Shown: one piece after another, positions 9,964 through 50,100 of the stretch
Position numbering within the stretch: the stretch's first letter is position 1
How the letters are laid out: every line of letters begins with the position of its first letter
IMG/VR virus record: IMGVR_UViG_3300024270_000041
DNA length: 64,000 nucleotides
Source: an uncultured virus (IMG/VR IMGVR_UViG_3300024270_000041)
Lineage: Duplodnaviria; Heunggongvirae; Uroviricota; Caudoviricetes
Strand: one strand, 5' to 3'
The notes under the pieces: model-generated
The model's input: only the letters and a program-made list of their open reading frames with translations
What the model was told of the DNA's origin: nothing
Databases searched by the model: none
Position numbers and translations under genes: made by a program

Positions 9964-10152
9964 TGTCGCCCTCAAGCATTATATGCGTTTATCGCACAGG
10001 GATTGACTTTTCTATTTTGGACAATGCCGGTATGAGACACCTCATCAACGCATATGGGCGATCCTCCTCCTCTCTAAACTGTCGTCATGGCAGGACCTAC
10101 CTAAATACAACGATGATACCCGGATGCCTCCGTATGGGCATCCGGGTATTTC
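9964..10152 (+). ncRNA. Candidate structured RNA/3' element with CCUCCUCCU tract and terminator
   Basis: Stems TCGCCC 9966-9971/GGGCGA 10056-10061 and ATATGCGTT 9981-9989/AACGCATAT 10047-10055, then TCCTCCTCCTCTCT 10062-10075 and a terminator at 10116-10149. Confidence 0.45.
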
Positions 10153-10246
10153 GTATCGTTTAAATGTCAAACTATATATCCTTACATGGTAAAAAAGACC
10201 GATGAGGTCGACAAAATGTCTAATATTGTAAAGGAGGTAGATTTCT

Positions 10247-10732
10247 ATGAGACATCGTAGAATCCCCACTAAGGAGAATTATTATCTCGATATTGCAGAA
10301 GCAGTTGCAGGAAGGGGTACATGTATTAGAAGATGCTTCGGTGCGATTATAGTTAAGGATGACAGAATCATATCCACTGGATATGTTGGAGCACCTAGAG
10401 GTGAAGAGCATTGTTGTGATACCGGAAAGTGTATTCGACATGAATTGAATATACCATCTGGTGAACGATATGAATTATGTAAGAGTGTCCATGCCGAGAT
10501 GAATGCTATCATAAATGGTACTGCATCAGATATGATTGGTTCGACTATGTATTTAGTTGGAAAACACGTCACTGATGACGGCACACTCGGAGAGTATGTG
10601 GATGGTACATCACCATGTAAACTGTGTAGACGTATGATAATCAATGCACGTATTGCTTATGTGGTAATAAGGAATGCTGATGGTATTACTTGGAGAAAGT
10701 ATCCCGTATCCGAATTACCTGAATATAAATAA
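10247..10732 (+). CDS. dCMP deaminase (ComEB/T4 cd-like)
   Basis: Zn-deaminase motifs VHAEMNA and SPCKLC, plus C.RR.FGAIIVKD.RIISTGY.G.P. RBS AAAGGAGG. Confidence 0.93.
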   Translation: MRHRRIPTKENYYLDIAEAVAGRGTCIRRCFGAIIVKDDRIISTGYVGAPRGEEHCCDTGKCIRHELNIPSGERYELCKSVHAEMNAIINGTASDMIGSTMYLVGKHVTDDGTLGEYVDGTSPCKLCRRMIINARIAYVVIRNADGITWRKYPVSELPEYK

Positions 10733-10765
10733 CTTTAACTTTAAGATCTTAGGAGGGTCCAAATT

Positions 10766-12945
10766 ATGGCAAAGAAATCAATGGATAATATTGAGGTTAA
10801 GATGGGAGACCCAACGTGGGTAATTCCAGCTATCAATAATCTCACTACATATTCGACCGACGAACTTGTTGACCCAGAGGGCAAGTTCTCCAAGTATGCT
10901 ATTCAGACATACGGTAAACTTGGTTACTTCACTGGTACAGAATCCGATGATGATTACGAACTTAAAGGCGTAATTGATTGTAAAGACCCGATTCTCAGTG
11001 AAGAAATTCAGGCTCTTCGTCGTAAGATTTATGATATGAATCCAAAGGGTAGGAGATATGGTACTGATATTATATCAGCACATGTATATACCCGTGACTT
11101 TGATAATGACTGTAGAGAGGATATGCTTACTGGTAAAGGTTTTAGGATATCCAATCACGAGTCGTTCGATAAGAAGAATCAAAAGATACCAGACGGTCTT
11201 CAGAGCCCAGAATTCGGTAGTGACTTCGGCGACGACCTTGAATTTGCAGAAAGATATAGATGTGTATGTGGACTCAAGATGGGTCAGATGTATGAACATG
11301 AAATCTGCCCAGAGTGTAATACAGAAGTTCAGTACTGTGAGGTAGACCTTGAGAAGACTGGATGGATTTTCATCGAGGGTGGATTTAAAGTAATCACACC
11401 TATATATTACGCGAAGCTCGAAGCACTCCTCGGTAAGTATGATAGCCAGGACTCAGTTATCGGAGCAATCATCCGCTGTAACTATAAAGATGCAAAGACA
11501 AATGAGGAACTTGATGAAGCTGGTCTTACAGATAGAGACCGAGAGATGATTGTTAAGCATCCATTTATCCGTAAAGGTATGGCATGGTTTGAACAGCACA
11601 TTCTCGAAGTTCTCGATTTCTATAGGAGAGCTAAGCCCGGTAAGGCTAAATGGTTCGAAGAAATCATTGATAATATAGACAAAGTATTCTGCTCGAGAAT
11701 ACCAGTATATACATCAGTTCTCCGTATGGAAGCTCCTGGTGCAAAGGATGAGAAGGTATTTAGAACCAAAACTAATACCTGCTATCGTTCAATCATCAGG
11801 TCCGCAAACATGATTAATGATTTGGTATCTCGTCACTATGTAAAGAATGCTGACGATAATGCACACTTTACAACCACTTATGATATCAGTGAAATGACAT
11901 CAATTGACAGATTCAGCGCTCAGATTCAGAAGGACCTCAAGGACCTCTTCGAAGAAGAGTTCACAATTCTGTCAGGAAAAGAAGGATATATTCTTGGTAA
12001 GGTAGTATCTGGTAGATACAACTTCTCCGCAAGAAACATCATCATCTCTGGTGGTGCCGACCTTCACTCAGACGAAATCATGGTTTGCTATTCCACATTC
12101 ATTGAGCTCTTTAGATATGAGCTCACAGCATACTATGCTAAATATAATAACTGTACAATATCAGAGGCCAATGATGCAATCCTGAAAGCACAGTCACGAT
12201 TCGATAAGCAGGTATATTACACCATGCTCTATATGGTTAATACGAATGATATCCATGTAATAGTTAACAGAAATCCGTTAGCATATAGCGGCTCCCAGTC
12301 GTGAGGCTGGTGAGAAAACTCTACTTTATACGGGGAAATGCTAGCCACCTCTTTTGAGGTTCCGTGCTACATTTACAAGCGTTAGCATAATCCGTAGCCA
12401 GGTCTCAGTTTACTGAGACAAGGTTCAACGACTATCGAAAGGGTAATCCGATACTTACATCGGGTGAGTAACCGAGTAGAGTAGGGCCAAGTGGTAGGTT
12501 TCTAGATGATATTAGTCTAGAGTGATTCCTTTAAACCGAAATGATGAGCATCTCATAAGAGTTTATGAGTTGGTGATATAGTCTACGCAACATGGTAACA
12601 TGTTGAACCCAGTACTGGGTTGATGGTAATTAACGACTACCATTTACTTGCACGGCAATTAACTATGGATCATTCCTTGCACTTCGTATCGTTCATGTTA
12701 AATCTGATATTGGAGATAGAACTCTCACCGTTAATAAGCGTATCCTCATCGTTATGGGTGCAGACTTCGACGGTGACCAGGAGAATATATTCAGAGTATT
12801 TGGCGACTCACTTAACGCAACTATTGCGAGACAGATGAACCCGAGATATACGCTCTTTATCGACAAAAAGAATAATCAACTCAATCGAGCGTTGATGCCT
12901 ACGAAGGATGAAGCTATCGGCTTCTATACCTTCAATAATATCTAA
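10766..12945 (+). CDS. RNA polymerase beta'-like subunit, N-terminal part with catalytic motif; spliced join(10766..12278,12656..12945), about 600 aa
   Basis: Zn finger RCVCG...ICPEC and GRYNFSARNII (conserved region C). Splicing gives VNRNPSINYGS...MGADFDGDQ. Confidence 0.92.
12279..12655 (+). mobile_element. Group I self-splicing intron, 377 nt, no homing endonuclease ORF
   Basis: P1: exon CCGU pairs with intron GCGG (12288-12291) with a U.G at the splice site. P-like CGGGGAA, Q-like AATCCGTAGC, R TTCAACGACTA (12424-12434), S GATATAGTCT (12575-12584), P9 hairpin with GTAA loop, terminal G12655. Removal restores the frame. Confidence 0.93.
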
Positions 12946-12963
12946 CGAAAGGGTTATGCTAAA

Positions 12964-13233
12964 ATGCCAGATAAACTCGAACTCAATATTGCATCAATTA
13001 CAATCATCATTGATGTGATCGAATTAACCATCGTATTTCTGACATGTATGCTATTTATAATATCTCGCAAGTATCTATATAATAAATTCGAGATTCGATG
13101 TGCTGTCACTAATGGTGATAAGCGTAAGTTTAATCTCATAAATCATATTATTACCGCTATCGTTATTGCGATGGCGGTAATAATCCCTATTGAAATAATA
13201 ATAGATGGGAGGGCATGTTGGCCTTGGATATAA
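12964..13233 (+). CDS. Small two-TM membrane protein
   Basis: Two hydrophobic stretches; GAAAGGG RBS. Confidence 0.65.
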   Translation: MPDKLELNIASITIIIDVIELTIVFLTCMLFIISRKYLYNKFEIRCAVTNGDKRKFNLINHIITAIVIAMAVIIPIEIIIDGRACWPWI

Positions 13234-14333
13234 GATTCAATATGTATAAGGTCAAGTATGATAAGCTTGACCATTTAACACGTACGCTGTTTCATTCACA
13301 GCATATATCAACCGTAAATATATACATCAGTCTCGATGACATATATTGGCATTGCCGCAACGGTCAGTCCAATCACGAATTCCAGTGCTGTGGTAATATG
13401 GCACCAAAGCAGTTGGTGTCCAATGTCCTTAATATTATAGCACACTATCGTGAATGGGCGGTTAGAAAGAATTTGACAGTTAAGGTATATGCATACTACA
13501 CAATGTCTACCATATTCGAGAACCGTAGCATACGTCACGATTATAGAAGTAATTACATTAGCAGAAGTGATATAACTAATGCAGACTGCTACTATGTAAA
13601 TAACTGTATCCGTGAAGCTGCACCAATTCTCAAGACAGTTACACAGTATATCGATGGCGTATACGTTGTTGATACTAGAGGATTGGAACCTTCCGCATTT
13701 CCACATCTCATGGCTACCGAACTATCCGACAGTCCTGCAGATTGGAACTTCCTCATAACTAAAGACATCGTCGAATTCCAGTATGCATACTATGATAAGT
13801 TCTCGGTGATTTATCCGAAGGGTGATGACTCAATGCTTCTGGATACTCCTTCAACATGGAGGCATATTGCCAATAAGGAGAAGGTGGAGAGTGAATATCT
13901 CTACAAATACCCAGATGCGTTCTTACCAATAACACTCGCTATTGTTGGTGACAAGAAACGCTCCATCCCGAAGATAAAGGGACTTAGCTGGAGAACTATG
14001 ATGAGAATGATGGATGATATTATAGTTGATAATACTGGACTTGACCCATATTCTCATGCTATGAAATTCCTCGACTCTTTGGAAGCTAAGAACTACAAGA
14101 TGTCCGAAATCCAGACAAATCTTAATCTGGTTCAGCCATCCACTAATGCAGCACTTGCTAGTGATGTAGTTAAGGAGAACATTCGTCTACAGTTCATTGA
14201 TACGCCCGACTATAATAGTTTAATGGAGCTTAATCGCAGTCCGGAATTGTTTGCATCATGCCCAATAAATATAAGGTTCCTTACACGGGTAGGAGATGTA
14301 AAACCAATAAGCCCGTTCAAGCTAAATTATTAA
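13215..14333 (+). CDS. 5'-3' exonuclease / T4 RNase H (FEN-like) family protein, divergent
   Basis: H3TH-like LAIVGDKKRSIPKIKGLSWRT and a FLITKD (SxDxD-like) segment. Confidence 0.6.
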   Translation: MLALDIRFNMYKVKYDKLDHLTRTLFHSQHISTVNIYISLDDIYWHCRNGQSNHEFQCCGNMAPKQLVSNVLNIIAHYREWAVRKNLTVKVYAYYTMSTIFENRSIRHDYRSNYISRSDITNADCYYVNNCIREAAPILKTVTQYIDGVYVVDTRGLEPSAFPHLMATELSDSPADWNFLITKDIVEFQYAYYDKFSVIYPKGDDSMLLDTPSTWRHIANKEKVESEYLYKYPDAFLPITLAIVGDKKRSIPKIKGLSWRTMMRMMDDIIVDNTGLDPYSHAMKFLDSLEAKNYKMSEIQTNLNLVQPSTNAALASDVVKENIRLQFIDTPDYNSLMELNRSPELFASCPINIRFLTRVGDVKPISPFKLNY

Positions 14334-14380
14334 AAGAAAGCCCATATGGGCTTTCTTTTTTGTGTTAGGAGTGATATAAG

Positions 14381-15664
14381 TTGAAAGCAATAGATAGTAT
14401 TAACTTCCGAATGTGTAAGTATAAAATGGACCGTATCCAGTTAACGGTACCAGGGTTATCTAAACCATATCAGGTTAATACTCTGGCTATAGGTGACCTC
14501 GTAATAGAAAAGGACTTTGATAATTACCAGTACCCATACTTTCGTGTAACTATAGGTGTACCTAATAAGGTGCGACGCCTCATGCGTAAGAGTCATACTC
14601 AAATAACTGCGTATGTTCGTATGGTATATGCATACTTCAAGACCCAGGATACGATAGGCTTACCGGATATGCATACGCAGGAGTATATATATCTATCCGA
14701 GAATTTCTATGTGTTTATGGAAGACCATAGCCCAGATGTAACTATGGACGTTGAAGAGCAGATTGAAAAGGAAACTCTTCCAGACGGTATCGTTACTGGT
14801 TTTGATAATCTTACCACTATAGAGATATTACTTTACAAGAAGGCCGACCTTAATCTGGTCAAGCAGACACCGACTAAGGTGTATCGTAATGTTACCCTTC
14901 TCGATAGTCTCGTAGATTATATGAATACCGTTGGTATGACCAAGGTATTGATGACACCCCCGAATAATAACCTGAAAAGATATAAACAGTTTCCATACCC
15001 ACCCATTAGAGTCGACGAGCAGATTCTCAGAGTATGTGGGGATTATGGTATTCATAAATGCGGTACAACTTTATTTTTCGACTTTGATAAGACCTATCTT
15101 ATCGAGAAGGTTAATAAATGCACTGCATGGGTACCCAATGAATATAAGACAATCTATGTAATTGAACCGACTGCCGCGGCACATGTGTCCACCGTAATTC
15201 AGGGATGTAGTTATGAATCTGATCATTGTGGATATTGTACGATGACAAGTGCTACATCATCCGCAGATTCGATGGAACGTGAACAGGTGTTCGGTTCACG
15301 AATGGATGTTATTGATAAGAAGACAGGTAATTACGTCGATGTGTCGGCAAACACTACAACTATTTCCGGTGGTGGTGGAAAATCACGTACTATTACCTCA
15401 TATGACGGTGATGCGTCTACCGCATATGCTATACGACAGCGAATGATTGAAGAATCAAATATTCTCACTGCTGTACTCGATGGTACAGACCTTACAATGC
15501 TTGCACCAAACAAGTTATACCAGTTAGTATTCTTATCATCCAATCTTTCTAAACATAATGGAGCATATAGGCTGAAGAAATTCACATGTGCGTTCCATGA
15601 GAATGATAGAGAATGGTTTACCCCTACAGTACTTGCTACATTTGTAGGAGACAAAATAAAATGA
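14381..15664 (+). CDS. Probable baseplate hub-like structural protein
   Basis: 427-aa beta-rich ORF (TTG start, AGGAG RBS). The C-terminal L.P...Y..........G.Y.L.....F pattern is reminiscent of gp27/VgrG hubs. Inferred. Confidence 0.4.
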   Translation: MKAIDSINFRMCKYKMDRIQLTVPGLSKPYQVNTLAIGDLVIEKDFDNYQYPYFRVTIGVPNKVRRLMRKSHTQITAYVRMVYAYFKTQDTIGLPDMHTQEYIYLSENFYVFMEDHSPDVTMDVEEQIEKETLPDGIVTGFDNLTTIEILLYKKADLNLVKQTPTKVYRNVTLLDSLVDYMNTVGMTKVLMTPPNNNLKRYKQFPYPPIRVDEQILRVCGDYGIHKCGTTLFFDFDKTYLIEKVNKCTAWVPNEYKTIYVIEPTAAAHVSTVIQGCSYESDHCGYCTMTSATSSADSMEREQVFGSRMDVIDKKTGNYVDVSANTTTISGGGGKSRTITSYDGDASTAYAIRQRMIEESNILTAVLDGTDLTMLAPNKLYQLVFLSSNLSKHNGAYRLKKFTCAFHENDREWFTPTVLATFVGDKIK

Positions 15665-15668
15665 CGGT

Positions 15669-15704
15669 AAATACCCCAGTACCATAAATGGTACTGGGGT
15701 ATTT
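15669..15704. terminator. Bidirectional intrinsic terminator
   Basis: Perfect 17-bp inverted repeat AAATACCCCAGTACCAT-aa-ATGGTACTGGGGTATTT between convergent units. Confidence 0.85.
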
Positions 15705-16231
15705 TATGTAAAACTATAGAAAGGTTGCATGTCTAATGCAAGCATATGTACTCAATAACAATGACCGGCAAGGGGTAGCTCTCACATTAACAATATGAAA
15801 TCATGGAGTGATTTTTAATGAAATTGCTTTATGAATACCTGAGCGCGGAAATGTATGTAACGTTCACGCTACTCTCAATACACGGGCAACTGTTCGCAAC
15901 ATCGTCCGCCGTATATATCAACGAGGTCTCGGCACAATCCGTTACAAGTGGCTTACGCAACATTAAGTAGATTAAGCTGTATTCATTAGTCGATGAAATC
16001 ATGAGCAAGAAAATATCGACGGATGTCTTTGCGAAACTTGAACACGCTTTGGCCGGAAGAATCCGCCATTTGAACTTTTTATCACGTTAACAGGTCCTCG
16101 CCACGTTAGTGGTGTTATCTCCGGGCATTTTATCGGTATAAGATATCGGGTATCTTCGAAACTACCCGGCCTTTGTCATTGTGTATCATAATAGGACGCA
16201 TTCCGCCTATAGTGAATGGCAAGTCGTCCTA
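15669..16231 (-). ncRNA. Candidate large (about 560 nt) multi-domain structured ncRNA
   Basis: About 590 bp without a long ORF; late-type promoter GACA-N6-TA at 16241-16230; several nested long-range helices; ends in a terminator. Confidence 0.65.
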
Positions 16232-16257
16232 CATATATGTCATATGGTGTATAGATT

Positions 16258-19128
16258 TTAAATGAAGAGTTTATCATTCTCAACCTGCTTGAGACGAATA
16301 CGAGATGAGTGGAATTTCTTCATACCTGCATTAACGAATGTATTAGGAACTGTAGCGAAGTTGATACCTACATTCATGAGGTCCATTTCATATGGTCTGG
16401 AGCCAATACATGCTGAGCATATCTTCTCACCAATACAGCACATTGGTGAACGTACTTTGATTGGTTTATTGATAAACTGCTTATAGTTCTCGTCGGTGAC
16501 AGTAACTAATTTACCCTCACCTACGATGACATTCTGACCTTCAAGGTCACGCCAATTATCCTCGGTGTATGTCAATGTTAAGTAACCCTTAGTATGACAA
16601 TCTGAACCCTCTTCGTCTACTACGGTAGCGCCGAACAGAGCATAGAACTGCTTTGTTACATAACCAGCATCGGCTGTACCTACGGACTTAGGATATGAAG
16701 CAGATACCACCATGTTACCAGCTTTTGCAATTTCGTCCTTTCTAAAGCCTTCTACATAGCTCGACTTAATAACGTCAAACTGACCTGTACCAGCATTATA
16801 AATAGGACCAATCATAGTATTGATATTCTTAAGCTGGTCATCGACTTTAGCCTTAGCACCAGATGCGAACAAAGTTCTTGATGTATCGGCATCAATTTTC
16901 TTCTTAAGCATATCTACAAGCTCATCCTCAAGAGCAGCCACTTCATCCAATGTCGGATTCGGGTTTTCTTTGAAGAATTGCTCCTTACGGGCAATAATCT
17001 TCTTGTCTGGAATAATTGTAGCCTCTGTCATAGACGATGCGAAAATAGTAGTTGTCTTATATGCATAGAACTGAATAGCCTTAAGGAATGGCCATACTTT
17101 ATCCGTGGTAATTCTATCATACTTAATAGCTGTAGCTACAAGGGCAAAAAGTTTCTCATACCCCTTCTTATCAATAGGGATATTCCAGTATCCATCTGGG
17201 ATAATCTCAACGATATATGGCTCAATGATAATCTTATTGAATGTAAGAATACCCAGGGTTGTTTCAACCGGTTTCTTATTGGTATACTGATTAGCAGCAA
17301 GAGTTACTGTATCATAATGAATATATTTGGAATTCTTAATCTTCTTGGTTTCAAGGTCGGTAGTCGTAGCAAACCATTCAGTTAACTTCTTCATACCAAT
17401 ATTCTTGTAGTTGGTATTCAATATCTCAGCAACAGCATGGGCTGGTGCAGGCTTACCCTTAGGGTTAAACTGCATCATAGAGTAAAGACCAAGTACACCC
17501 TCGTTACCCAGGGTCTTAATAAGTTTACCCTGACAGTCGATATAGTGCTTCTTAGACATGATAATATTCATTGTCTCGTCGTTAGCTTCCTTAGAGAACA
17601 TAGCACGATGAGATGTTTGGTCGCCATCATAGTCACCGCCGATAGCTTCGAGGAACGAGTTATCCATATTAAGAGTATCGTTGAACGCTACTGCCACCTG
17701 CTCCGGTGGTGCATCAGGTTCTACTACTGGGTAATATGGAAACTCTTTCTCAATACCCTGAATTCGAAGCTTTATTGGTGTAGTTTTGATGGTTGATAAT
17801 ACATGAATCATTGATGGGAAGATACCAAAGTATGAGATAAGTGGATATCTAGTAACCCACGTGGTCTTATCTGACGAGACCTCGACCGCTGCGATATATA
17901 GTAAATCAGTCCAAGTGAAATCACGATCAGCGATAGGTGCCATACCATCAGCATTCGGATTCTTCGGATCAAAAGGTCTTCCTGCAAACTTCAGTGGAAT
18001 AATCTTCTGACCACTCGGAGTCTTGATTCGTACAGTCACGGGTTCAAATCTTGTCTCATAGTTATCAATGAACTTATCAATTCGCTTCTTGATAAGATCT
18101 GCAGTATAATCCTGCATTGGGTCATCAAGCTCATATGATTCAACATTACCGCCTTTAAGTGCCAAATTAAGTCGGTTACCCGATACTTCAAACTGCTCAG
18201 AAAGGTAATTGGCTACCCAACGAGCAATGAATGGGAATAATGTAACACAAAGCTCAGCAAGTGGAATACCTGTATGATTAACGTCAATAGGCACTTCATC
18301 CGGAGTATCATACTGGTCAAGTACCATACATGAGATAACTGAACGGTGACCATAGTCCGGAGCTTTACCTACAACGTACTTATTGAAGAAACCATCGGAT
18401 TTCTCAATGATACTTCTGAAGTATTTATGGAGTTCCAGAGTCTTAAGCTGAATGCGATACTTCGCAGCATGACCCATGAATAAGAATGTCTTATCATTCA
18501 ATGACTTTGCAAGACGAATGATATCGATATACATATTATTGACCTGTGGAATCTTAGCAGGTCCATCGCCGGTTCTTTCCACATCTCTGTAGAATACCGG
18601 CTGTACTACGAACTTATTGATGAATATTTCATTCGGTTCAAATGACTCAATCATATCGATACGTTCGTTACGCTCTCTGGATTTATTACGCTTCCATTTA
18701 ATCTTTGAGTAGTTCTTGATAAACCAATCCAATCCACAGTTAGCTGGATTAGCCTTCGGGTCATCATCTTTAAGTTTAATGAGGTCACCATTTTCAGTAA
18801 CCTCCCAACACCCTTCGCCGGCGATACACTTCGATATATTCTGCTGAAGTTTAGTAAGGATTTCATAAACGAATGGATGTATGATAGTTGTATTGAGATC
18901 GATATAAGCATACTGGCGCTTACGTTCATCGACTGTCTTACCGAATATCTCTTCGGAGAATAATCCATCCACTGTAGGGATACCTTCTCTCTCAAAGGAT
19001 ACTGGATTGGTAACAGGCTTCATTCCGAGATACTTAATAGACAGGTCAATTACTTCTTGCGTCTGGATGTCTACCTTTAATGGGACATCCGGTCCGACGG
19101 TGCGGACATCTGGCATTTCGTTAGCCAT
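16258..19128 (-). CDS. Second RNA polymerase beta'-like subunit (about 956 aa)
   Basis: Motifs DGLFSEEIFG, TRYPL, GGDYDGDQ, VGTADAGYVTK (bridge helix), RSPMCC...ICSAC and AGMKKFH (trigger-loop-like). Start MANEMPD follows AAAGGAGG. Confidence 0.93.
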   Translation of the reverse strand: MANEMPDVRTVGPDVPLKVDIQTQEVIDLSIKYLGMKPVTNPVSFEREGIPTVDGLFSEEIFGKTVDERKRQYAYIDLNTTIIHPFVYEILTKLQQNISKCIAGEGCWEVTENGDLIKLKDDDPKANPANCGLDWFIKNYSKIKWKRNKSRERNERIDMIESFEPNEIFINKFVVQPVFYRDVERTGDGPAKIPQVNNMYIDIIRLAKSLNDKTFLFMGHAAKYRIQLKTLELHKYFRSIIEKSDGFFNKYVVGKAPDYGHRSVISCMVLDQYDTPDEVPIDVNHTGIPLAELCVTLFPFIARWVANYLSEQFEVSGNRLNLALKGGNVESYELDDPMQDYTADLIKKRIDKFIDNYETRFEPVTVRIKTPSGQKIIPLKFAGRPFDPKNPNADGMAPIADRDFTWTDLLYIAAVEVSSDKTTWVTRYPLISYFGIFPSMIHVLSTIKTTPIKLRIQGIEKEFPYYPVVEPDAPPEQVAVAFNDTLNMDNSFLEAIGGDYDGDQTSHRAMFSKEANDETMNIIMSKKHYIDCQGKLIKTLGNEGVLGLYSMMQFNPKGKPAPAHAVAEILNTNYKNIGMKKLTEWFATTTDLETKKIKNSKYIHYDTVTLAANQYTNKKPVETTLGILTFNKIIIEPYIVEIIPDGYWNIPIDKKGYEKLFALVATAIKYDRITTDKVWPFLKAIQFYAYKTTTIFASSMTEATIIPDKKIIARKEQFFKENPNPTLDEVAALEDELVDMLKKKIDADTSRTLFASGAKAKVDDQLKNINTMIGPIYNAGTGQFDVIKSSYVEGFRKDEIAKAGNMVVSASYPKSVGTADAGYVTKQFYALFGATVVDEEGSDCHTKGYLTLTYTEDNWRDLEGQNVIVGEGKLVTVTDENYKQFINKPIKVRSPMCCIGEKICSACIGSRPYEMDLMNVGINFATVPNTFVNAGMKKFHSSRIRLKQVENDKLFI

Positions 19129-19262
19129 TATATTTAACCTCCTTTGTGAAGTCAATTATATAGAGGTTTTCGAATCGGGTCTTCTAAAAGCAAAAAAATC
19201 AACACCGCCTAAGTAACTAGAACCGCCAGGTACGTACCTGGCGGTGTTGATGTTAGTATGGC

Positions 19263-19652: not shown

Positions 19653-19734
19653 AATTACCTCAACTTTCTACCACTTTATCGTGGCGGTCAAAATGATTTA
19701 TTTAGAAGGCCGTATTACCTTCTATCTTACTAAT

Positions 19735-24868: not shown

Positions 24869-25004
24869 AAAATAAACCTCCCTAGTTATAACAATTAAAA
24901 TATACCCGTAACGCCATGAAGACGTTACGGGCAAAGCAGAAAGGAGTCACACCGGTTATGGGTCAACCCAGTGTGGTATATCTGAAATACGGGAAACTGC
25001 TGAA

Positions 25005-26682: not shown

Positions 26683-26986
26683 AAAAAAGTCCCCCATATG
26701 AGCATAGACGGGCTCATATGGGGGTATATATAAAAACAAAACAAGAGGCACTGAATAACCAAACTTGTTTATTAGAATTATCATTCGCAGCTTATTGTGT
26801 ATCCTTATGTCCTATGATAATTAAAAAAGTACTAGAGGAGGCACCAGCTGGAACTAGTGCCTCATATGTACCAATTTCATAGGAGGATCAACAATAAGCA
26901 GGAACTTCCCGGCACTATTGCACCAGGTCTTCAAGCAAATTGCAAATGAAGAATCAAACGCACTCGCAATCAGCAGAGGACGTCTA
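26683..26986 (-). ncRNA. Candidate about 300-nt structured ncRNA
   Basis: Late promoter AACA-AATATA-TA (26996-26985), several G.U-containing helices on the minus strand, and terminator stem 26691-26724 with U tract. Confidence 0.6.
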
Positions 26987-26999
26987 TATATTTGTTGTA

Positions 27000-33840: not shown

Positions 33841-33899
33841 TCCTTTCTATAAGGTATTATAGCGATTACTAAGCTGTTTCGGGAAGGGCTCAAGTTAAC

Positions 33900-34066
33900 A
33901 AAAAAAAATGACAGAGGGTTGAGCAACGACCCTCTGTCAAAACGGAGAAAATGTAGGAGGACATATCACGGTTGGAAGGCAAAATGATAATTTGTGTTGT
34001 AGCGACCCCTAATGTCAATAATCGCATACAAGTAGGAGATATTTAATCCAACCGCTAATGTCCCAT
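33900..34066 (-). ncRNA. Candidate about 165-nt rod-shaped sRNA with central bubble
   Basis: TATATAT box at 34078-34072; closing helix GGACAT..CGGTTGGA / TCCAACCG..ATGTCC; CUCCU tracts; terminator 33909-33939 with long U tract. Confidence 0.6.
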
Positions 34067-34084
34067 ATAGAATATATACGCGAA

Positions 34085-35019: not shown

Positions 35020-35153
35020 AAGTATATACCCCGGAATCCTGTGGACGGATTCCGGGGTTTGATCAAAGGAGATGCTCTTGCCACTTTATGGCATTTTCGC
35101 TTTCGGTAAAGTGAAAATCAAGCAGTTAATACGATTATGTCAGCTCGTATTTA
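35020..35153 (-). ncRNA. Candidate about 130-nt sRNA or attenuated leader
   Basis: Late promoter AACA-AGTATG-TA (35163-35152), three hairpins, UCUCCUUU (35072-35065), and terminator stem 35028-35058. Confidence 0.5.
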
Positions 35154-35176
35154 CATACTTGTTACAATTCGATTAT

Positions 35177-41697: not shown

Positions 41698-42011
41698 GCC
41701 TGCTCACCTCCAAGCCATTCGTTATACATATTGTGTACCATACCATCTGTGAGGTTAAAGTGATACTGAGACATGCCCCAGTTATCATTCAGGGTAATTT
41801 CGAGAATCTCTCTGAAATCTCTGATATTACTGATTACCACACCAGATTTTTCAAGTTCTGCTTCTGTGACGGAAGCATACACTTCACCATTCTTATACAG
41901 GTGAATGATTCCCTGACTTGGGGTAAGTCTGAAGTTTCTTACCACCGATACAAGATAGTAATCGCTACCGAGCATACACTGACCATTTTCGTATAATGTG
42001 ATTTCTTTCAT
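41694..42011 (-). CDS. Early hypothetical protein
   Basis: Start MKEITL follows GGAGG; TATATATCAT box at about 42073-42064. Confidence 0.7.
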   Translation of the reverse strand: MKEITLYENGQCMLGSDYYLVSVVRNFRLTPSQGIIHLYKNGEVYASVTEAELEKSGVVISNIRDFREILEITLNDNWGMSQYHFNLTDGMVHNMYNEWLGGEQA

Positions 42012-42279
42012 TTTACATTCCTCCGTATTTAAAATATATGCCAGTATGTATTCTGACATATAGATGATATATACTTTGGTCACTATATCGAAAACATCGT
42101 ATTAAAACGGAGGTGATGGATCCCATGGATACTCTAATTATGAAGCATCCGCCCGAGACCTTGGAGGTGATCCGACACATCTACCAGAGAAATTGGTAAC
42201 TCTGGTTGACTCCAACTTTACCCAGTAAGCTAAATATTCATAGCTTACTGGGTATTACTAAAAACAAAGAAAAAAATAC

Positions 42280-42495
42280 AAAATATAAAGGGGGTACGGT
42301 ATCGTACCCCCAACTTGTTTGTACCACATGCTACATGATACACTCCTTTCTGCCCCTTCTCGGGACTACAACGGTTTTATGGTATGGAAGACCGAGGTAA
42401 CTTCCTTTAGTAGCAGATATAAATATATCCGGCTTGAGAGAGTTCCGAATGGAACGATAAGCTGCCGTTATGATATATTTATCTACCCCTCATTC
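42280..42495 (-). ncRNA. Candidate early structured RNA containing an RBS-ATG-TAG minigene
   Basis: Bipartite early promoter 42534-42502, long 5' helix, GCAGAAAGGAGTGTATC-ATG-TAG (42353-42331), and terminator GGGGGTACG/CGTACCCCC. Confidence 0.5.
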
Positions 42496-42591
42496 AATTA
42501 TACTATATATATGCACAATATTCCGATATTACGGTCTAATCCCTGGCACATAGAAAATACCCAGATAACCATATGGTTATCTGGGTATAAA

Positions 42592-44751
42592 TTACAGCAG
42601 TTTCGTAGTATGAACGCTGATAGGATTTTCAATTTTACTATTGACTGTGAGGGTCGGTAAACTGAGTCCTGTGAACCTCTCGAGTCCCTGCATGAATCCT
42701 GTCATCTGTGCTTCAGCATCCTCAATTCTGAGAGACTTCTGAATTTCCTTGTTAATCTTCTTATCATATCTCTTATTGATAGAGAGAAGCTGATTGGAAG
42801 AAAGGAGCATTGTGATGATACTTGTAGTTGCTCTGAGGATTTCACTATCAGTAGCAACGGAGTTGATAACTCCAGTACCAGCAGGTTCGAATTCTTCGGT
42901 GACGATATTGTAACCAAGATTCTTAGTTACCGCATACTCAAATATAGCACACATGTCATATTTGAGCTCACGGAGTGCTGCATTTTTTTCATGGTCACAG
43001 AGACATCTGAAGAACGGATGCATGTGATTCTTAATTTCATTTCTTGATTCATCATCGATACCGTCCCATGTATATACTGTTGGGAGACATGGGTCATCTG
43101 CAAACTTATTGAGCATTACATCGATAGATGTAAGCATGAATGCCTCTGCAATGTATCTGAGGATAGTATGGTTGATATAATCATCCGGTGTAGAATCCTC
43201 ATTAGCTTCGATTGCTGTAACAAGGTCAAATATAACGGACATAGTTTCGAGATTGAAGCCTCTGATATAACCGTTCTCATATGCCGAACGACATGCGAGT
43301 GTCGCGTCGAGCACAGCGTCTCTTGTGCATCTCTTCTTGAGTTCGGAGTCTCCACCAACGAAGATTACGCCGGTATCACCGACGAACTTAACGAGTCTGA
43401 GGTGTGCCTCCATATAATCCTTCTCAAGTGTCTCTGCATGATGGAATACCTTTTCCTTAGCAGAGTTGAAGTCTTCCTTGAGTGCCGCAAGAGCCGCCTG
43501 ATATGCAACTGTATCCTTTGAGTAATCTTCAAGAAGCAGATACTTTTCAGTAATAGTAAGTCTTGGGGCTCTACCGGCAGAACCTTCAATAATCGCGGAT
43601 GGTTTCTGGCATTCCTGTGATGGGAACATCATATGGAATTCATCGGAGTCTCCGTAATAATGCTCGTAGTTTTCGACCGTTTCATCAGATGCGTTCGTCT
43701 TAAGGAAGTTAAACATACGCACCTTTGTATAGTTAACGATTTCAGAGCCAGTGAGAATAGCGAAGTCAGCAGCATAATCCTTGAGTGCCTTACTTGTAAG
43801 TGAAAGCTGGAAGAGCATTACTGAAAGTTCACCGGCATTTACAACCTTCTCAGCAGCACCCTTAATAGCAGAACCGAGAGCAGAAAGAATCTGGTCATCA
43901 TAACTTGGTGCAAAGATGATAGCCTGAGAATGTTCGCTGTTAGCCAGGTTGACGATATCATTGATAATGCTGTAGTGTTCGTTATACTTCACCATGTGGT
44001 CGAAGATGAAGACACGTGGATTACGAGTATTTACGAACTCCTTATCGCCTCTGAGATAGAGAGGTGCCCAGAGCAGGTGACAGTCGAGTTTGTAACCTCT
44101 GTTAATTGTGTATGTAGTCTCATCAGTATCGGAGAGTGTAACGTGAATGTTAGGGTTATGAGTCTTCTCATAAATCTCTCTGATAGTTTCGGATATCTTC
44201 TCGTTACCATTGGAGGAGATATATGCGATATTATAGATATCTTCGAACTTACAGTCGTCGCCGGTATCTTCGATGATATGCTTATGGGTGTCCTTGTTGA
44301 GCTCGGTAATGATTAAGTCCTTCATAGACTCAATCTTTTCAATAAGCTCAGCCTGTCTGATACGTGAGTTGATTTGGCGTATCTCTGCCATCATCTGGTC
44401 GAAGAGCTGGATGAAGTGGTTTGCAACGACAAGAGCAGTTGTCGTACCGTCTCCAACTCTTGAGTTGAGAGTGAAGCTAATACGCTTGATATAGTTATAA
44501 AGTACTGAGTGTACAGGATCACCGAGTAACAGGTGGTCCAGAACTGTCCAACCGTCCTTAGTAGAGAATGCATTGACTCCATCATCAAGTACCGTGGTAC
44601 TGGCATATGGACCAAGTGTTCTGGTAACTACTTCGGCAGCAGTTTCGCAGATTGCACGCAGAATTGCTTTATATTCTGCAGATTCGATGAGATTAAGACT
44701 TGCACGAATTTCGTTCTTAAGCTCCTCATGTTTTGTCATTTGATTCATCAT
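42592..44751 (-). CDS. groEL: GroEL-like phage chaperonin
   Basis: Motifs RTLGP, TKDGWTV, VGDGTTTA, ISSNG, IFVGGDSELKK and DAVLDATLACRSA. Start follows AAAGGAG. Confidence 0.92.
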   Translation of the reverse strand: MMNQMTKHEELKNEIRASLNLIESAEYKAILRAICETAAEVVTRTLGPYASTTVLDDGVNAFSTKDGWTVLDHLLLGDPVHSVLYNYIKRISFTLNSRVGDGTTTALVVANHFIQLFDQMMAEIRQINSRIRQAELIEKIESMKDLIITELNKDTHKHIIEDTGDDCKFEDIYNIAYISSNGNEKISETIREIYEKTHNPNIHVTLSDTDETTYTINRGYKLDCHLLWAPLYLRGDKEFVNTRNPRVFIFDHMVKYNEHYSIINDIVNLANSEHSQAIIFAPSYDDQILSALGSAIKGAAEKVVNAGELSVMLFQLSLTSKALKDYAADFAILTGSEIVNYTKVRMFNFLKTNASDETVENYEHYYGDSDEFHMMFPSQECQKPSAIIEGSAGRAPRLTITEKYLLLEDYSKDTVAYQAALAALKEDFNSAKEKVFHHAETLEKDYMEAHLRLVKFVGDTGVIFVGGDSELKKRCTRDAVLDATLACRSAYENGYIRGFNLETMSVIFDLVTAIEANEDSTPDDYINHTILRYIAEAFMLTSIDVMLNKFADDPCLPTVYTWDGIDDESRNEIKNHMHPFFRCLCDHEKNAALRELKYDMCAIFEYAVTKNLGYNIVTEEFEPAGTGVINSVATDSEILRATTSIITMLLSSNQLLSINKRYDKKINKEIQKSLRIEDAEAQMTGFMQGLERFTGLSLPTLTVNSKIENPISVHTTKLL

Positions 44752-45556
44752 TCGGTTTCTCTCCTTTAAAGTATACTGTAGATTTGTCACCCTTGTAGTC
44801 AGTGACATATTTTAACTGAAACCAGTTAGCTTCGCATTTGAAGCGTTGCTTGGTTTCGGATAAGAATTTCTGATGCTTATAGAAACTCTTATCCATAGCA
44901 TCAGCGTCGACTCGAATATTCGGCAATGCTGATATCAGGAAGAGTTTCTTATAGAATTTATCAGTCCCCTCAGGTTCCGATTCAATAACCTCGAGCACCT
45001 CATCGGCCGAGTCACATATGATAGTGGTAATCTCAGGTTTAGCTGTTATGATATCAAGTAACGAGCCTTCCAGTAAGGATATGCGTGGGCCATTTGCTCT
45101 ACCAAATGAGTCTCTTAAGAACTTCTTAGTGATATCAGAGAATGCTGTATCGTAGATATAAATCTTCTTACAGAAGTCATATGTTAGGAACTCATGTAAC
45201 ATTATCTCAACATTTGTAACTGATGCAAAGTATGGATTAGATAGTGCCATTAGCTTTGCGTAATCCTGAGACGCGTTGCTAAATCCAAGTTTATTAAAGT
45301 GCTTGAATGATAAAGCCATGAACTTTAGAAACTCGGCACTTGTAAACGGTGAGAGTAAGTTAAATCTCTCCTCGGCAGACTTGTCGAGTAAGTTGGCAAA
45401 CTTTGTGTAGTTTTCGAGCCAGTACGACTTGAAGTCCGGTAACTGTGTTGCTGCATTATAAAGTAGCTCTCCGGCATTCTTCATACCGCCTCGGAATTTA
45501 ACAAGAAATACCTCATCCCTTGTTTTGGTTACAGGTCTTAAGAAGTCAAATTCCAT
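44726..45556 (-). CDS. Hypothetical protein
   Basis: 276-aa ORF with AAGGAG RBS, overlapping the chaperonin start. Confidence 0.75.
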   Translation of the reverse strand: MEFDFLRPVTKTRDEVFLVKFRGGMKNAGELLYNAATQLPDFKSYWLENYTKFANLLDKSAEERFNLLSPFTSAEFLKFMALSFKHFNKLGFSNASQDYAKLMALSNPYFASVTNVEIMLHEFLTYDFCKKIYIYDTAFSDITKKFLRDSFGRANGPRISLLEGSLLDIITAKPEITTIICDSADEVLEVIESEPEGTDKFYKKLFLISALPNIRVDADAMDKSFYKHQKFLSETKQRFKCEANWFQLKYVTDYKGDKSTVYFKGEKPNDESNDKT

Positions 45557-45617
45557 GTGATTTCTCCTTCAAAAAAATCAGGCGTTGAGTGATATATCAA
45601 CGCCTGATACGAATTCC

Positions 45618-46454
45618 TTAGAATGGATTACTGTCGCTTGCTCCGGTCATCTGCATAAACGCCGCCATATCACCATCGAACTGCTTAAGCTCAAGTGCTG
45701 GTGGAGCTGACTGTGTGAACGCTTGTGTATTTCCAGTCTTCTGCTGGTAAGCAGGAGCCTCAATCTGAATACCATTCTTCATGGCAATCTGATTGATGGT
45801 TGTGCGAGTCTTATAGTTGGTATTACCATATCGGCTTTCAATCTGATGAACAGTGCCATTACACTGAGACTTTACAAACTCATCGAGTGCTGTGATGAAT
45901 GTGATAATCTGTGGATATTCAGTTTCGATGGATTCAAAATCACCTGTGGATGGATCGTAACCAATGATAACTGGTACTGTATCGGTCATCTTGAATACCT
46001 TAACTGTCTTAGGAAGACGTGTAGCCGCGTCGATGTCTGTAGAATATACGATTTCTGGAATATATGGGCCAGATTCAGGTTTACCTGTAGAAATAGAGAG
46101 CACGTTGGTAAGATCCTTATTGGTTGCGACACCGATACTGAAGCCCTTATTGAAGGTGGTATCATCATTTCTCGTATCCACGTATTCCTGGAACTTTGGT
46201 ATGAATTCACTACGAATGCGATTCATAAAAGCTGCCGCCTTTTCGCGGGTAAGAATAGCTGAAAGGTCCTTATCTCCGCCAGTTGGTCGTGGGAATGAAC
46301 GTTTACCGTTTTCATCGTATTTGGCATCCCTGAATGATACAATACAGATATTATCACTGAACTTCAGTGACATCATTACGTTATCACTGAAGAATATAAG
46401 TGACTGTGTGTTAATTGGGAATCTTTCGGTTCCCCCATTGTTGTTAAAAGCCAT
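45618..46454 (-). CDS. Possible single-stranded DNA-binding protein
   Basis: Beta-rich N-terminus, Q/A/P linker and C-terminal SDSNPF tip (like the SSB DDxPF); near the DNA polymerase. Confidence 0.4.
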   Translation of the reverse strand: MAFNNNGGTERFPINTQSLIFFSDNVMMSLKFSDNICIVSFRDAKYDENGKRSFPRPTGGDKDLSAILTREKAAAFMNRIRSEFIPKFQEYVDTRNDDTTFNKGFSIGVATNKDLTNVLSISTGKPESGPYIPEIVYSTDIDAATRLPKTVKVFKMTDTVPVIIGYDPSTGDFESIETEYPQIITFITALDEFVKSQCNGTVHQIESRYGNTNYKTRTTINQIAMKNGIQIEAPAYQQKTGNTQAFTQSAPPALELKQFDGDMAAFMQMTGASDSNPF

Positions 46455-46521
46455 TGTTAAACCTCCTTGTATAATCAATCAGCCGACTAGCTATTGTCGG
46501 CTGACCTATAGCCAATATTTT

Positions 46522-46893
46522 TCATTTGTTATTGGTACCGAGTACCTGACGTTCAGCTCTGTCCTCGACACGCTTATTCATATACATGAGTGCGATTTCG
46601 AGGTGTCTGAGAGCTTCAGCATTCTCTTCGCAAGCAAAATCTCCTCCCTGGAAGAACTTAAGACGGTCTCTTACAATTTCGAGCAGGTCAGTATCAAGTA
46701 CGCCTCTGATACTCTTCTCATCCTTACGAGGTCCCTTCTGGAATATGATAAGTGGGAAAGAGTAGTTCTCGTTATCTGCACAAACGATACGATACTCATG
46801 ATGAGCCCCGCCTGGACCGATATCGTCTTCACGAAATACTCGGTTGAGCTTATTGTGCTTTTGGATTGTGATTAATTCTGTGCCTTTTGACAT
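46522..46893 (-). CDS. tad1: Tad1 anti-Thoeris/CBASS signal sponge protein
   Basis: From recalled sequence, closely matches clostridial Tad1: [43 protein letters not shown]...ENA.AL.H.E.ALM.MN.RVEDR.ER.VLGTN.K. Confidence 0.92.
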
Positions 46894-46960
46894 AAGTATT
46901 CCTCCTATGATTAATAAATATTTATGAAATCTGTCGCCGGTGAAGTATAAATCAACCGGC

Positions 46961-49021
46961 TCAGATATTCACGATGTTAGTATAATGCTGTGTTGTTGCA
47001 CCTGTCTTCTGAATCTTTGGACCAAGTGGGTCGATGATAGGATTGATAAGGTTAACAACGTCTGTGATAATTTTGGATGAGTTGATTATATCTTTCATCC
47101 ATGCTGGTAGATTAGTCATATCACGCGGTTTAGCTATACATGTGATAGACATAGTCCATTCATACTCATTAGATGACATAAGAATGTTCCGATAATAATT
47201 CTCGAAGATTTCTCTGTGCTCATAATATAGCTTCTTAAAAGGAACTGCTGCATCGGATTCTTTACTATTAAAGAATGCCTCTGGGTCATCACGCATCATG
47301 AGATACTTCTTCTTTGACATACCAGTATCCAGTGTAACTGGAACCAGGTCGACTTCAGCAGGGAATGCCATCTCTTCTGCAGGGTTAAATGCGTTCCAAA
47401 GATGCACCGCTTTATATCCCTGATTAGACAATGGAGCTTTATATCTTGCAGCGGGATGAACCGTAAGCTGCTTATAGAGTGAGTTATCACCTTCCTGAAG
47501 CAGTACCTTAATCTCTGCTTCATATTCTCTTACAGCTCTTAGAATATTTCTCAAATCGATCTCCGGTGCAAGGATAATCTGGGTATCAATAAGCTCATGA
47601 CATTTCTGTCTTACTGATTCCTTAGTACCGGCTTTCTTAAAGTCAAACCCAGCAACTACACGCTGGTTGTCGATGCCATTGATGAATTTACCCTCTTGGA
47701 GTAATACCTGACCAAAGTATCGTTTCTTAGCAGTACCAAATACGATAATTGGCCAATAAAGCTCGTTCTTCATTGCAAGCTTCTTACCCCACTCAGGGGC
47801 AATCTGTCTAGCCTCAGTAAATGATTCAAATGCTTCTGAGATAGACATAGTCAGAATCATTGTGAAGATATTTACCGACTTAAATGTGAACTCATCCTTA
47901 TTCTCAGTGATAGCATTCTTAAGTGAGTAAGCATACATAATATACTTAACTACCGAGATGAAGTTAGAGTCCGTGTCGATATAAAGTACCGCAGACTTAT
48001 TAGTGTATCTAGTTCGACGTACTCTATCGAATATCTGGTGCTTATAAAGTACGAATACTTTGAGCATCTTAATGATTTCAAGCAGTATTGATTTAGAATC
48101 GTCACGTGCTACAGTATCACACCATTCTTCGCCCATAAAGTCGAATGTATCGATATCACCATTACGGAGAATGATGATAGAGTTGAGAAGCTCAGTATTA
48201 ATTGACTGACAGAAAGGTATATTGAGGAATTCGAAGAGATTATTCTTATAATACATCAGCTTGAGACAGTCCTCATCGGCGGAAGCAATTATTCTCGATA
48301 TAATCATTGCCTCATCTTCAGTGATATTAAAACCGACCTTATCTGCAAGTCTATCGGCTACCTGCTTAGATGTTACTGGTGGTACTCTTGAGAATAATTT
48401 AAGCTCCTCGTCCGTAAGCTTTTCATAATCATGTATGATATTCATCAGATATAATACAAACTCTGTCACGTTGACGAACTTGATATTGTCCGATATGAAG
48501 TTCTCGAAGTGACATGTTGCTGTCGAGATGATTGCCTGACCCATAGCAGTAGTAGCCTGAGCAAGGTTGACATTGAATAGATGAAATTTCATGTAACCGA
48601 GGATACCATAGAGAGAGTTAAGCATAATCTTCTTGTTATTTTGTGCTAAGTCATACATCTGCCATTCTGTAGTACCTTTATCGAACGAATCCCTCTGTTT
48701 CTTGAGAGCCTTACGCTCTTTCATCAAGTCTGCAATCCATTCAGCAAGCAGACTCAGTTTCTGGGAATGTTGTACAAACATGCACCCATCCCCACCAAGG
48801 ACAAGATTGTTTGTCAATATGAGTGATATGACAACGGTCAATGATGAGCGTATGGATGTATTGCGATAGTTATTAACCATTGTACATTTAGGGTCCTTGA
48901 CCTCTATATTATATATTTTACGTAGGGTCTTTTCCAGTACCTCTTCATCCCAATCAGGATGTGCGGTTCTAAGAACTTCTGAAGCCTGGGATACCCATTT
49001 ATCTTCAAATCTTAGTGCCAT
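46961..49021 (-). CDS. Family B DNA polymerase, split subunit (fingers/palm/thumb part)
   Basis: Has [16 protein letters not shown] and KKRYFG. No exonuclease motifs or DxxSLYPS seen, as in split phiKZ/AR9-type PolB. Confidence 0.88.
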
Positions 49022-49173
49022 AATTTACCTCCTATATTTTTGCGTTATACTATTGATGATAACATCATTCTTCGCTAGAATATAGACTTGAAATGATTAT
49101 TAATTAAACAACTCATGTAATGTATGCAAACATATGTATGCACAATATTAATCCTAAAAGGAGGAATTGTAAT

Positions 49174-49773
49174 ATGTCATCTTTTGATTCAATGTTCGAA
49201 GGTCTCTTCGAGAACAACGATGAAGATATTGCTGCTGGTGCCATGGAATCTACAGTAGGCGATGATTTTGCATTTCTCGATGAAGGTGCTGCTGAACTGA
49301 CTCCCGCTGCTGAATCCGCTATTTTCCTCGAAACTCTTATGGATAGCTTCGATGATCCTAACGAGTTCGCAGATTATGCTATGGAAAATGCTGTATACTG
49401 GGAGACATACGGTCTCATCGACAATGCTACAGAAGCCCTCGAAGCTGTTAAGAAGTTCCAGGTTGATAACTGGAAGCAGGTCAACTTCGAAAGACTCTGG
49501 AAGAGAGAGTGTATCCGTATCGAAGCTCGTAAGGATACAACTACTTGGAAGAAGTATGCTCTCCACAGAGGTAAGATGAGAGAAGCACGTGATGAAATCT
49601 TCCGCAAGAACAAGACTCAGGCTATGAAGAACGTTCGTGCTGCACAGGCTAACTCTAAGAGAAAGGTTGCATCCATGAACACATCCGGTTCAAAGGACCT
49701 CCAGTCCAGACTTAATAAGTCTATCTCTAAGAGTACTTCTGGTAAGGATCCTACAACAGGCAAGCCTTCCTAA
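49174..49773 (+). CDS. Probable abundant internal head protein
   Basis: Acidic leader MSSFDSMFEGLFE with AMES/AAES/ATEALEA, then a very basic C-terminus. High-expression codon bias. Confidence 0.6.
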   Translation: MSSFDSMFEGLFENNDEDIAAGAMESTVGDDFAFLDEGAAELTPAAESAIFLETLMDSFDDPNEFADYAMENAVYWETYGLIDNATEALEAVKKFQVDNWKQVNFERLWKRECIRIEARKDTTTWKKYALHRGKMREARDEIFRKNKTQAMKNVRAAQANSKRKVASMNTSGSKDLQSRLNKSISKSTSGKDPTTGKPS

Positions 49774-49839
49774 CAGACTAATTATACCCAGATAACCATA
49801 TGGTTATCTGGGTATTTTCTATGCACCAAGGGGGGTATG

Positions 49840-49872
49840 ACGTAATATCGGTATATAGTACGTATATATCAT
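49840..49872 (+). promoter_or_regulatory. Bipartite early-type promoter ACGTAAT-N16-TATATATCAT
   Basis: Conserved motif and spacing. Confidence 0.7.
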
Positions 49873-49877
49873 ATTAG

Positions 49878-50100
49878 TGAGAAAAATATATTTATGATTA
49901 TCAATTCTCAGTTGGGACACCGGACGCCCGATCACGTCCGGATTCTATATGGTTGTGGTATGACGATCATATAGTCTAGGATTTTAAGATTGGCGTGGTA
50001 CATACCGACTGCGCCCCAGGGCCGTGGCCTCCTACCAAAAACCCACGGAATATATCAGGATGACCAAACTGGTCATCCTGATATATTTATATTTTTTTTG
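49878..50100 (+). ncRNA. Candidate early multi-hairpin sRNA with CCUCCU loop
   Basis: No RBS-led ORF. Hairpins at 49920-49941, 49945-49974 and 49992-50016, then 50022-50048 with loop CCTCCTACC, then terminator 50049-50087. Confidence 0.6.

Follow-up and report, generated by a model that had tools for sequence, protein, structure and literature searches.

Introduction

The Rsa small RNAs (sRNAs) of Staphylococcus aureus (RsaE/RoxS) and RNAIII use an unpaired C-rich box to bind the Shine-Dalgarno (SD) sequence and block initiation (PMC2790875), and the streptococcal csRNAs, 51 to 202 nucleotides (nt) long, carry anti-SD and anti-AUG sequences (PMC3091779). Among jumbo phages, 201phi2-1 has been reported to make 11 sRNAs, 3 of them intergenic (PMC11512511), one sRNA is kept by position across four phages (PMC11512511, PMC8244752, PMC13282480), and in phiKZ one sRNA was predicted and not confirmed early in infection (PMC8244752). 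According to a 2024 review, the role of sRNAs in lytic phages is still open (PMC10884466). Here, we analyze a 64,000-nt stretch of DNA (the window) from an uncultured member of the Caudoviricetes (IMGVR_UViG_3300024270_000041), in which four intergenic units, termed c4, c5, c6, and c7, run from a phage-type promoter to a terminator hairpin and end in a CU-rich tract complementary to the SD of ribosome-binding sites (RBSs). Our full-text literature searches, which miss most subscription papers and supplements, turned up no jumbo phage with a set of anti-SD sRNAs.

The phage units resemble the Rsa RNAs and RNAIII in forming a set of candidate sRNAs that are unrelated in sequence but combine a 5' hairpin and a terminator with an unpaired C-rich box, and the specificity from flanking bases described for the staphylococcal RNAs is likewise proposed for them (PMC2790875). 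In contrast, the staphylococcal RNAs are bacterial, host-polymerase transcripts verified by Northern blots, probing, and toeprints; their motif is UCCC and RsaE is conserved in sequence (PMC2790875), whereas the phage units are predicted from sequence and have CCUCCU or CUCCUUU cores and phage-polymerase promoters. The RsaE/RoxS model of Rfam found no sequence or structure match at the phage units. Like the csRNAs, of which there are several per genome, the phage units have an anti-SD tract predicted to be unpaired between a 5' stem-loop and the terminator, that of c6 lying in a hairpin loop. The csRNAs, however, need CiaR promoters, resemble each other, and have a conserved nonamer (PMC3091779), whereas the phage units have AR9-type promoters and are mutually unrelated; neither a CiaR-dependent promoter nor mutual similarity or a match to the csRNA family in Rfam was found for them. 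We place the phage units in neither family and liken them only in their presumed mode of action. With the sRNAs of 201phi2-1 and phiKZ they share the form of short promoter-to-terminator units lacking a coding sequence (CDS) in jumbo phages with multisubunit RNA polymerases, but those sRNAs belong to other hosts and another promoter consensus, and the available text of the reports describes no anti-SD seed, target, or mechanism for them (PMC11512511, PMC8244752, PMC13282480). The promoters of AR9 are AAATATATATTAT-6N-G (early) and AACA-6N-TA/G (late), the same consensus and the same +1 spacing as in the present phage; the AR9 paper reports antisense transcripts, and its main text contains neither the term "small RNA" nor "noncoding" (PMC5312081).

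Four promoter-to-terminator units end in an anti-SD tract

The window lies within a 108.7-kb virus record (G000) of a phiKZ/AR9-like jumbo phage that encodes split multisubunit RNA polymerase subunits, a divergent family B DNA polymerase, a chaperonin, a prohead protease, and a major head protein. Best matches among cultured phages include jumbo phages of Bacillus, Listeria, and Staphylococcus at 30 to 34% identity, and strong SD sites precede the genes of this phage, which suggests a low-GC Gram-positive host. A second record (G001) is identical across the whole of G000, and a third (G005) overlaps the end of G001 over 10,192 bases at 99.99%; G000 and G005 give ~240 kb of the same phage and were used for genome-wide scans.

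How many intergenic promoter-to-hairpin units does this genome hold, and how many of them end in an anti-SD tract? An unbiased scan of the ~240 kb yielded 10 rows, 9 of them distinct, and 4 of these 9 units, namely c4, c5, c6, and c7, end in such a tract (0.58 expected, P=0.0015 in shuffles). None of the four contains an open reading frame (ORF) led by an RBS. By our reading, the remaining five comprise one gene-call artifact, two in which an SD leads a small ORF, and two whose final 50 nt contain no tract. Sequences, promoter motifs, hairpins, the absence of RBS-led ORFs, and the enrichment of tracts are direct observations.

Early (AT-rich 13-mer-6N-G) and late AR9-type promoters both occur in this phage. 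The late motif AACA-N6-TA stands upstream of 23 of the 110 genes with an upstream gap of at least 60 nt, compared to 3/110 on the antisense strand and 21 of 3,181 CDS windows. Both c5 and c7 have the exact late motif directly past the upstream stop codon. The early promoter of c6 is consensus (position weight matrix [PWM] score of 24.0), and that of c4 is a variant scoring 13.7, compared to a training median of 19.3 and a 99th percentile of 8.9 in the CDS background. Only a late-promoter variant with a 7-nt spacer (+1 at 9946) was found for c1, and no promoter motif lies near c2, c3, or the capsid gene 3' untranslated region (UTR), the other elements considered below. An earlier annotation made from the sequence (the first-pass annotation) named six such elements, c1 to c6, four of which were said to follow their own promoter and to look like stand-alone transcripts; this is supported for three (c4, early variant; c6, early; c5, late) as ORF-less promoter-to-terminator units, and not for c1, c2, and c3. 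The fourth promoter-led unit is c7, which that annotation missed.

The c7 unit (26824..26996, minus strand) starts with the late promoter at 26996-26985 (+1 at 26985) and would give an RNA of ~160 nt, with a 5' domain of three to four hairpins, an anti-SD/anti-start tract at ~26897-26871 (core, 26886-26881), and a terminator at 26863-26838. In c5 (35020..35163, minus), the late promoter at 35163-35152 (+1 at 35152) is followed over ~130 nt by a 5' hairpin and a three-way junction, the tract at 35072-35065, and the terminator at 35058-35028. The early-type variant of c4 (33899..34081, minus) lies at 34081-34069, with a predicted +1 at 34062; the unit, ~160 nt long, is a rod closed by a 5'-3' stem, with the tract at 33961-33953 and a terminator at 33939-33909 that has a 9-U tail. 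The c6 unit (49860..50100, plus; ~220 nt) has its early promoter at 49860-49872 (+1 at 49879), a long 5' rod, the tract at 50028-50036 within a 15-nt hairpin loop, and a terminator at 50049-50087.

Whole elements fold at z scores of -3.8 to -6.7, mostly owing to their terminators. Domain-only z scores, with the terminator excluded, are -3.95 for c7, -3.28 for c5, -2.10 for c1, -2.03 for c6, -1.64 for c4, -1.53 for c2, and -0.06 for c3, so that the folded domain formerly ascribed to all six elements is clear in c5, modest in c1 and c6, and weak or absent in c4, c2, and c3. The domains of c5 and c7 fold better on the promoter strand (for c7, -3.95 in sense versus -1.25 in antisense, with 7 G-U pairs), and their first hairpins start at +2 and +1, respectively, whereas the z score of the c1 domain is the same on both strands. 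In RNAs folded from about the predicted start, the tract is predicted to be exposed to different degrees, with an unpaired probability of 0.96 in c6, 0.88 in c5, 0.74 in c7, and 0.52 in c4.

Predicted pairing of c7 with phage start regions

Eight elements were compared with 211 start regions of this phage and 557 start regions from three other phages. c7 can pair with the start region of a 423-amino-acid (aa) gene of its own phage (G000:C1:33080-34351, minus) over 15 contiguous Watson-Crick pairs, or 17 when G-U is counted, compared to a foreign maximum of 9 (12 with G-U) and to at most 12 pairs (14 with G-U) for 30 anti-SD words drawn from coding sequence. A second helix of 17 pairs (with G-U) covers the start codon of the dUTPase gene, and two further own start regions can form 12 and 11 Watson-Crick pairs with c7. 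The pairing is unusual relative to random or permuted flanks (p = 0.005-0.011). With accessibility included, the best partners of c7 reach -29.5 and -27.8 kcal/mol, versus -21.5 kcal/mol for the best foreign site, the partner at -27.8 kcal/mol being a conserved 337-aa gene (G000:C1:31547-32560). Pfam and PHROGs gave no name for either of its two best targets. Among the four promoter-led units, c7 alone has a wobble anti-AUG at RBS distance.

As a within-phage control, we permuted columns in 60 sets and counted the sets as good as the best hit or the top three hits of each element. For c7, 1/60 sets equals its best hit and 0/60 its top three; 2 and 2 sets do so for the capsid 3'UTR and 5 and 3 for c3. 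With eight elements tested, only c7 clearly stands out, and the capsid 3'UTR and c3 are borderline. The proposal that these RNAs occlude RBSs of phage mRNAs thus gains, for c7, computed pairing beyond the permutation control. Raw duplex energies did not separate own from foreign targets for c1 to c4; own-versus-foreign energies with accessibility favored c5, c7, and the capsid 3'UTR, in a comparison where the foreign phages differ in GC. c5 dropped out in the within-phage permutation despite these favorable energies. No clear early-versus-late bias was seen among targets, 106 of the 211 start regions being unclassified.

Possible masking of RBSs by phage sRNAs

By analogy with RsaE and the csRNAs, we give about even odds to the explanation that the units are trans-acting, RBS-masking sRNAs made by the early and late polymerases of the phage. 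The phage would encode a small panel of unrelated, independently transcribed sRNAs, c4 (from 34062, minus) and c6 (from 49879, plus) being made from early promoters by the virion RNA polymerase and c5 (from 35152, minus) and c7 (from 26985, minus) from late promoters by the non-virion polymerase. Each sRNA would consist of a protective folded 5' part, a largely single-stranded anti-SD seed, and an intrinsic terminator; the seed would pair in trans with RBSs and block 30S loading in the manner of RsaE or the csRNAs, and flanking bases would give specificity, for the c7 RNA toward the phage's own mRNAs. The other elements would serve as broad seeds or target host messages, and the tracts in c1, c3, and the capsid 3'UTR are perhaps versions of such sRNAs derived from 3'UTRs, or else cis elements. 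It is from the motifs, predicted folds, and computed duplexes that we infer transcription, in vivo structure, pairing, repression, and targets.

A broader view, tentative and in our judgment somewhat unlikely, is timed translational control, in which early and late anti-RBS sRNAs from two polymerases would silence chosen phage and possibly host mRNAs, with 3'-end seeds, such as that of the capsid mRNA, released from abundant messages. The c7 RNA would then act on several start regions with common bases ahead of the SD. This genome contributes four promoter-defined anti-SD units in two temporal classes with one statistically supported target set. This raises a concrete question: do jumbo phages time expression by RBS masking besides polymerase switching? 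The unit layout can be sought and assayed in the cultured relative AR9.

Several results weigh against RBS-masking sRNAs. The early promoter of c4 deviates from consensus, and the AR9 virion polymerase is described as sensitive to such promoter changes (PMC5312081). The occurrence of tracts in 4/9 units reaches only P=0.053 relative to permuted motifs of the same C/U composition. When upstream coding sequence is attached, the tracts are mostly paired (unpaired probability of 0.06 for c4, 0.20 for the capsid 3'UTR, and 0.39 for c1), and that of c7 falls to 0.48 with 60 nt attached. In the column permutation, the numbers of sets matching the best hit and the top three are within chance for c5 (9 and 23), c4 (27 and 23), c1 (49 and 33), and c2 (58 and 56), and the top-scoring partner of c6 (3 and 14 sets) is a questionable gene call. 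In the other ~130 kb of this phage (G005), none of 9 long pre-terminator regions has a tract (0.61 expected). Among relatives, two positional counterparts of c1 and c7 (see below) lack significant sequence homology in a score test, 6/68 units at other loci have a tract versus 4.1 expected, and a general occurrence of the layout among related jumbo phages is not supported by 158 polymerase-anchored loci (5/115 regions versus 4.4 expected).

CU tracts before terminators and rival explanations

All six CU tracts reported in the first-pass annotation are present, at 10062-10075 (c1, plus), 15725-15718 (c2, minus), 24947-24936 (c3, minus; formerly placed one base off, at ~24948-24937), and, in c4, c5, and c6, at the positions given above, and a long palindromic hairpin follows each. 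Our analysis added c7 (26886, minus) and the capsid 3'UTR (60434, plus). There are 42 sense-side terminator-like hairpins in the 108.7-kb record, 29 of them no more than 20 nt past a stop codon and 11 with at least 40 nt of noncoding sequence upstream. A tract was scored where the last 50 nt before the hairpin matched the reverse complement of the RBS consensus over 6 or more contiguous nt. By this definition, 6 of the 11 regions have one, compared to 0.63 predicted by dinucleotide shuffles, and none of 200,000 simulations gave as many as 6. Two gene calls, one of them a 66-codon frame over c1, had been removed before this test, and c7 is left out of the 11 because its hairpin failed the U-tail filter. 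Elsewhere, tracts are found in 3.3% of 1,802 CDS sense windows and in 3/44 farther UTR windows, and the SD itself precedes the terminator in 1/11 long pre-terminator regions. The six enriched matches are the first-pass annotation's own set, so that the test is not out of sample; in relatives, tract-bearing pre-terminator regions number 1/5 (G002), 1/16 (G003), and 1/11 (G004), and the out-of-sample signal is weak. One more CCUCC word lies in the rest of the same phage (L209:7490-7560, plus), in a 3'UTR of ~36 nt before a terminator, just below the length cutoff.

Could the tracts simply be pyrimidine-rich linkers before terminators, picked out by the selection made in the first-pass annotation, in units transcribed or structured for other reasons such as stability or protein binding? 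Permuted motifs of the same composition give far less extreme results than shuffles (mean of 1.68/11, and the P value of 0.053 above), enrichment is lacking out of sample, and the early-promoter unit at 42480-42290 bears an SD instead. Only 0.7% of 2,000 permuted motifs reach 6/11, however, and the extended match of c7 to own start regions and the same layout at matching positions in two relatives also speak against this explanation, which we consider improbable.

The elements do not form a family, as had been thought: no alignment extends past words of 8 to 12 nt, no Rfam family covers them, and Rfam gave no match up to E = 5 at the units and none at the units of relatives. They have a common layout, not a common sequence. 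Nor is it supported that all six are one kind of thing, since c2 fits an opposite-strand RBS and c3 is without a folded domain and can pair in cis.

The case of c2 leads to a more general rival, that the tracts, located right behind a two-way hairpin as is usual for genes of this phage, are ordinary RBSs of tiny or dead opposite-strand genes. Since the hairpins are symmetric and, in 8 of the 28 cases where a hairpin separates two co-directional genes, the second gene starts within 41 nt of it, each tract could be such an RBS. A start codon does stand 4 to 13 nt after the SD on the opposite strand of c1 (2 codons), c2 (9 and 20 codons), c3 (16 codons), c4 (TTG, 24 codons), c5 (TTG, 68 codons, extending into the upstream gene in antisense), and the capsid 3'UTR (6 codons), but there is none at RBS distance for c6 and c7, the promoters of c4 to c7 face the anti-SD strand, and only at c2 and c6 does annotated transcription reach the SD strand. 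Four overlapping frames of 59 to 70 codons had no counterpart in the protein collection (0/4), and the 66-codon frame over c1, a sense frame that passes through the terminator, has no homologue. We regard opposite-strand RBSs as an unlikely origin of the set. The weakest element, c2 (15669..16257, minus), lies in the 553 nt past an RNA polymerase gene, with a shared hairpin at 15704-15669 and no same-strand promoter; its plus strand is transcribed from the gene at 14381 up to the hairpin, and the tract doubles as the RBS of the plus-strand 9- and 20-codon frames (15729 and 15736), so that c2 is best set aside.

For c3 (24895..25004, minus), a 71-nt 3'UTR of a 235-aa gene with one hairpin before the tract and a terminator at 24933-24903, an action in cis may apply: in a read-through fold, its tract pairs with the SD of the next gene with a probability of 0.73. 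Generalized, a leader or 3'UTR anti-SD would fold onto the SD of the next gene or of its own mRNA and silence leak-through messages. Between the hairpin and the start of the next gene there are 36 nt in the case of c3 and 28 nt in that of c5, which leaves little room for a promoter. The corresponding probabilities are, however, only 0.13 for c1, 0.05 for c5, 0.15 for c4, and 0.00 for c7; c2 and c6 have no downstream gene on their strand, c6 owing to its convergent intergenic position, and the genes after c4 and c7 carry promoter motifs of their own. As an account of all elements, silencing in cis therefore has a low probability.

The c1 element (9964..10155, plus) is the structured 3'UTR of an 85-aa gene, with its terminator at 10116-10149. 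The capsid 3'UTR (60410..60487, plus) is a candidate only: the 40-nt 3'UTR of the major capsid gene has a 5-nt core at 60434-60438 and a terminator at 60450-60487, and it can form 16 pairs, one of them G-U, with a single start region of the phage.

Comparison with related phages

RNA polymerase homologues at 57 to 74% identity exist as proteins, and DNA scans of viral, metagenome, and genome collections returned only the same phage or relatives at no more than 49% identity. The two closest relatives with DNA found, G002 and L101, have polymerase identities of 49% and 46% and use the same late motif (13/73 and 4/13 genes). Each has a unit with a late promoter, a hairpin, CCUCCU, and a terminator: in G002, the CCUCCU core of a 45-nt late unit precedes the terminator upstream of the endolysin homologue, which is the position of c7, and in L101, an 88-nt late unit lies upstream of the homologue of the polymerase gene at 10766, the position of c1, with dCMP deaminase absent. 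Apparent sequence homology of these pairs was not significant in the score test (p of 0.05 for c1-L101 and 0.32 for c7-G002 with the core kept), the matching pair not being the best pair. Among 121 own start regions, none stands out as a target of the G002 unit. Units with a tract number 2/5 in G002, 1/1 in L101/L102, 0/1 in G003, and 1/7 rows in G004; an opposite-strand RBS could account for the tract in G004 and for the second one in G002.

A 14-nt word common to c5 and the L101 unit was discarded as a family motif, since a collection scan with 15 matches found no other such unit and the word in c5 is mostly late promoter. A search of 241 loci with a gapped layout pattern gave no match, but the pattern was too strict, since known units escaped it as well.

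Two other types of unit were seen in distant relatives. In many of them (L063, L067, L074, L079, L082, L090, L094, L157, L058, and L031), the intergenic region after the polymerase gene has an early-type promoter, a strong SD, and a micro-ORF of 9 to 12 codons, mostly acidic, with a recurring (D/E)-T-(I/V/M)-(G/A/L) noted by eye; such micro-ORFs are absent from the window. In L083/L084/L177 and L128, the polymerase gene is followed by a conserved unit of 200 to 250 nt between two terminators, with an SD close to its 5' end and, ahead of the second terminator, a CCUCC word; the two could pair in cis.

Other features of the phage

Upstream of c6, an identical 32-nt terminator palindrome occurs at 49784-49815 and again at 42557-42588, with an early promoter after each copy. 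The latter copy lies in a region (42012-42591) of two small convergent units. The minus-strand unit has an early-type promoter, a folded region, and a strong SD, directly behind which come a start-stop and a frame of 23 codons whose end is hydrophobic, and this SD is complementary to the c3 tract over 12 nt; the plus-strand unit has a late promoter and an SD-led 24-codon frame.

Three early genes have a near-identical 5' leader with a hairpin between promoter and RBS (window 55170-55236; G000 oriented 68100-68177; L209:7560-7680). An 830-nt region between two terminators (G000 oriented 73361-74190; G000:C1:26907-27736) has no called gene; it contains early-type motifs and several hairpins, with no anti-SD tract before the terminator.

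No tRNA or transfer-messenger RNA gene was found in the window. The sole Rfam match there is a group I intron at 12269-12605 (plus; 56.8 bits), without a homing nuclease frame, which splits the RNA polymerase subunit gene starting at 10766; the gene resumes after the intron and runs to ~12945.

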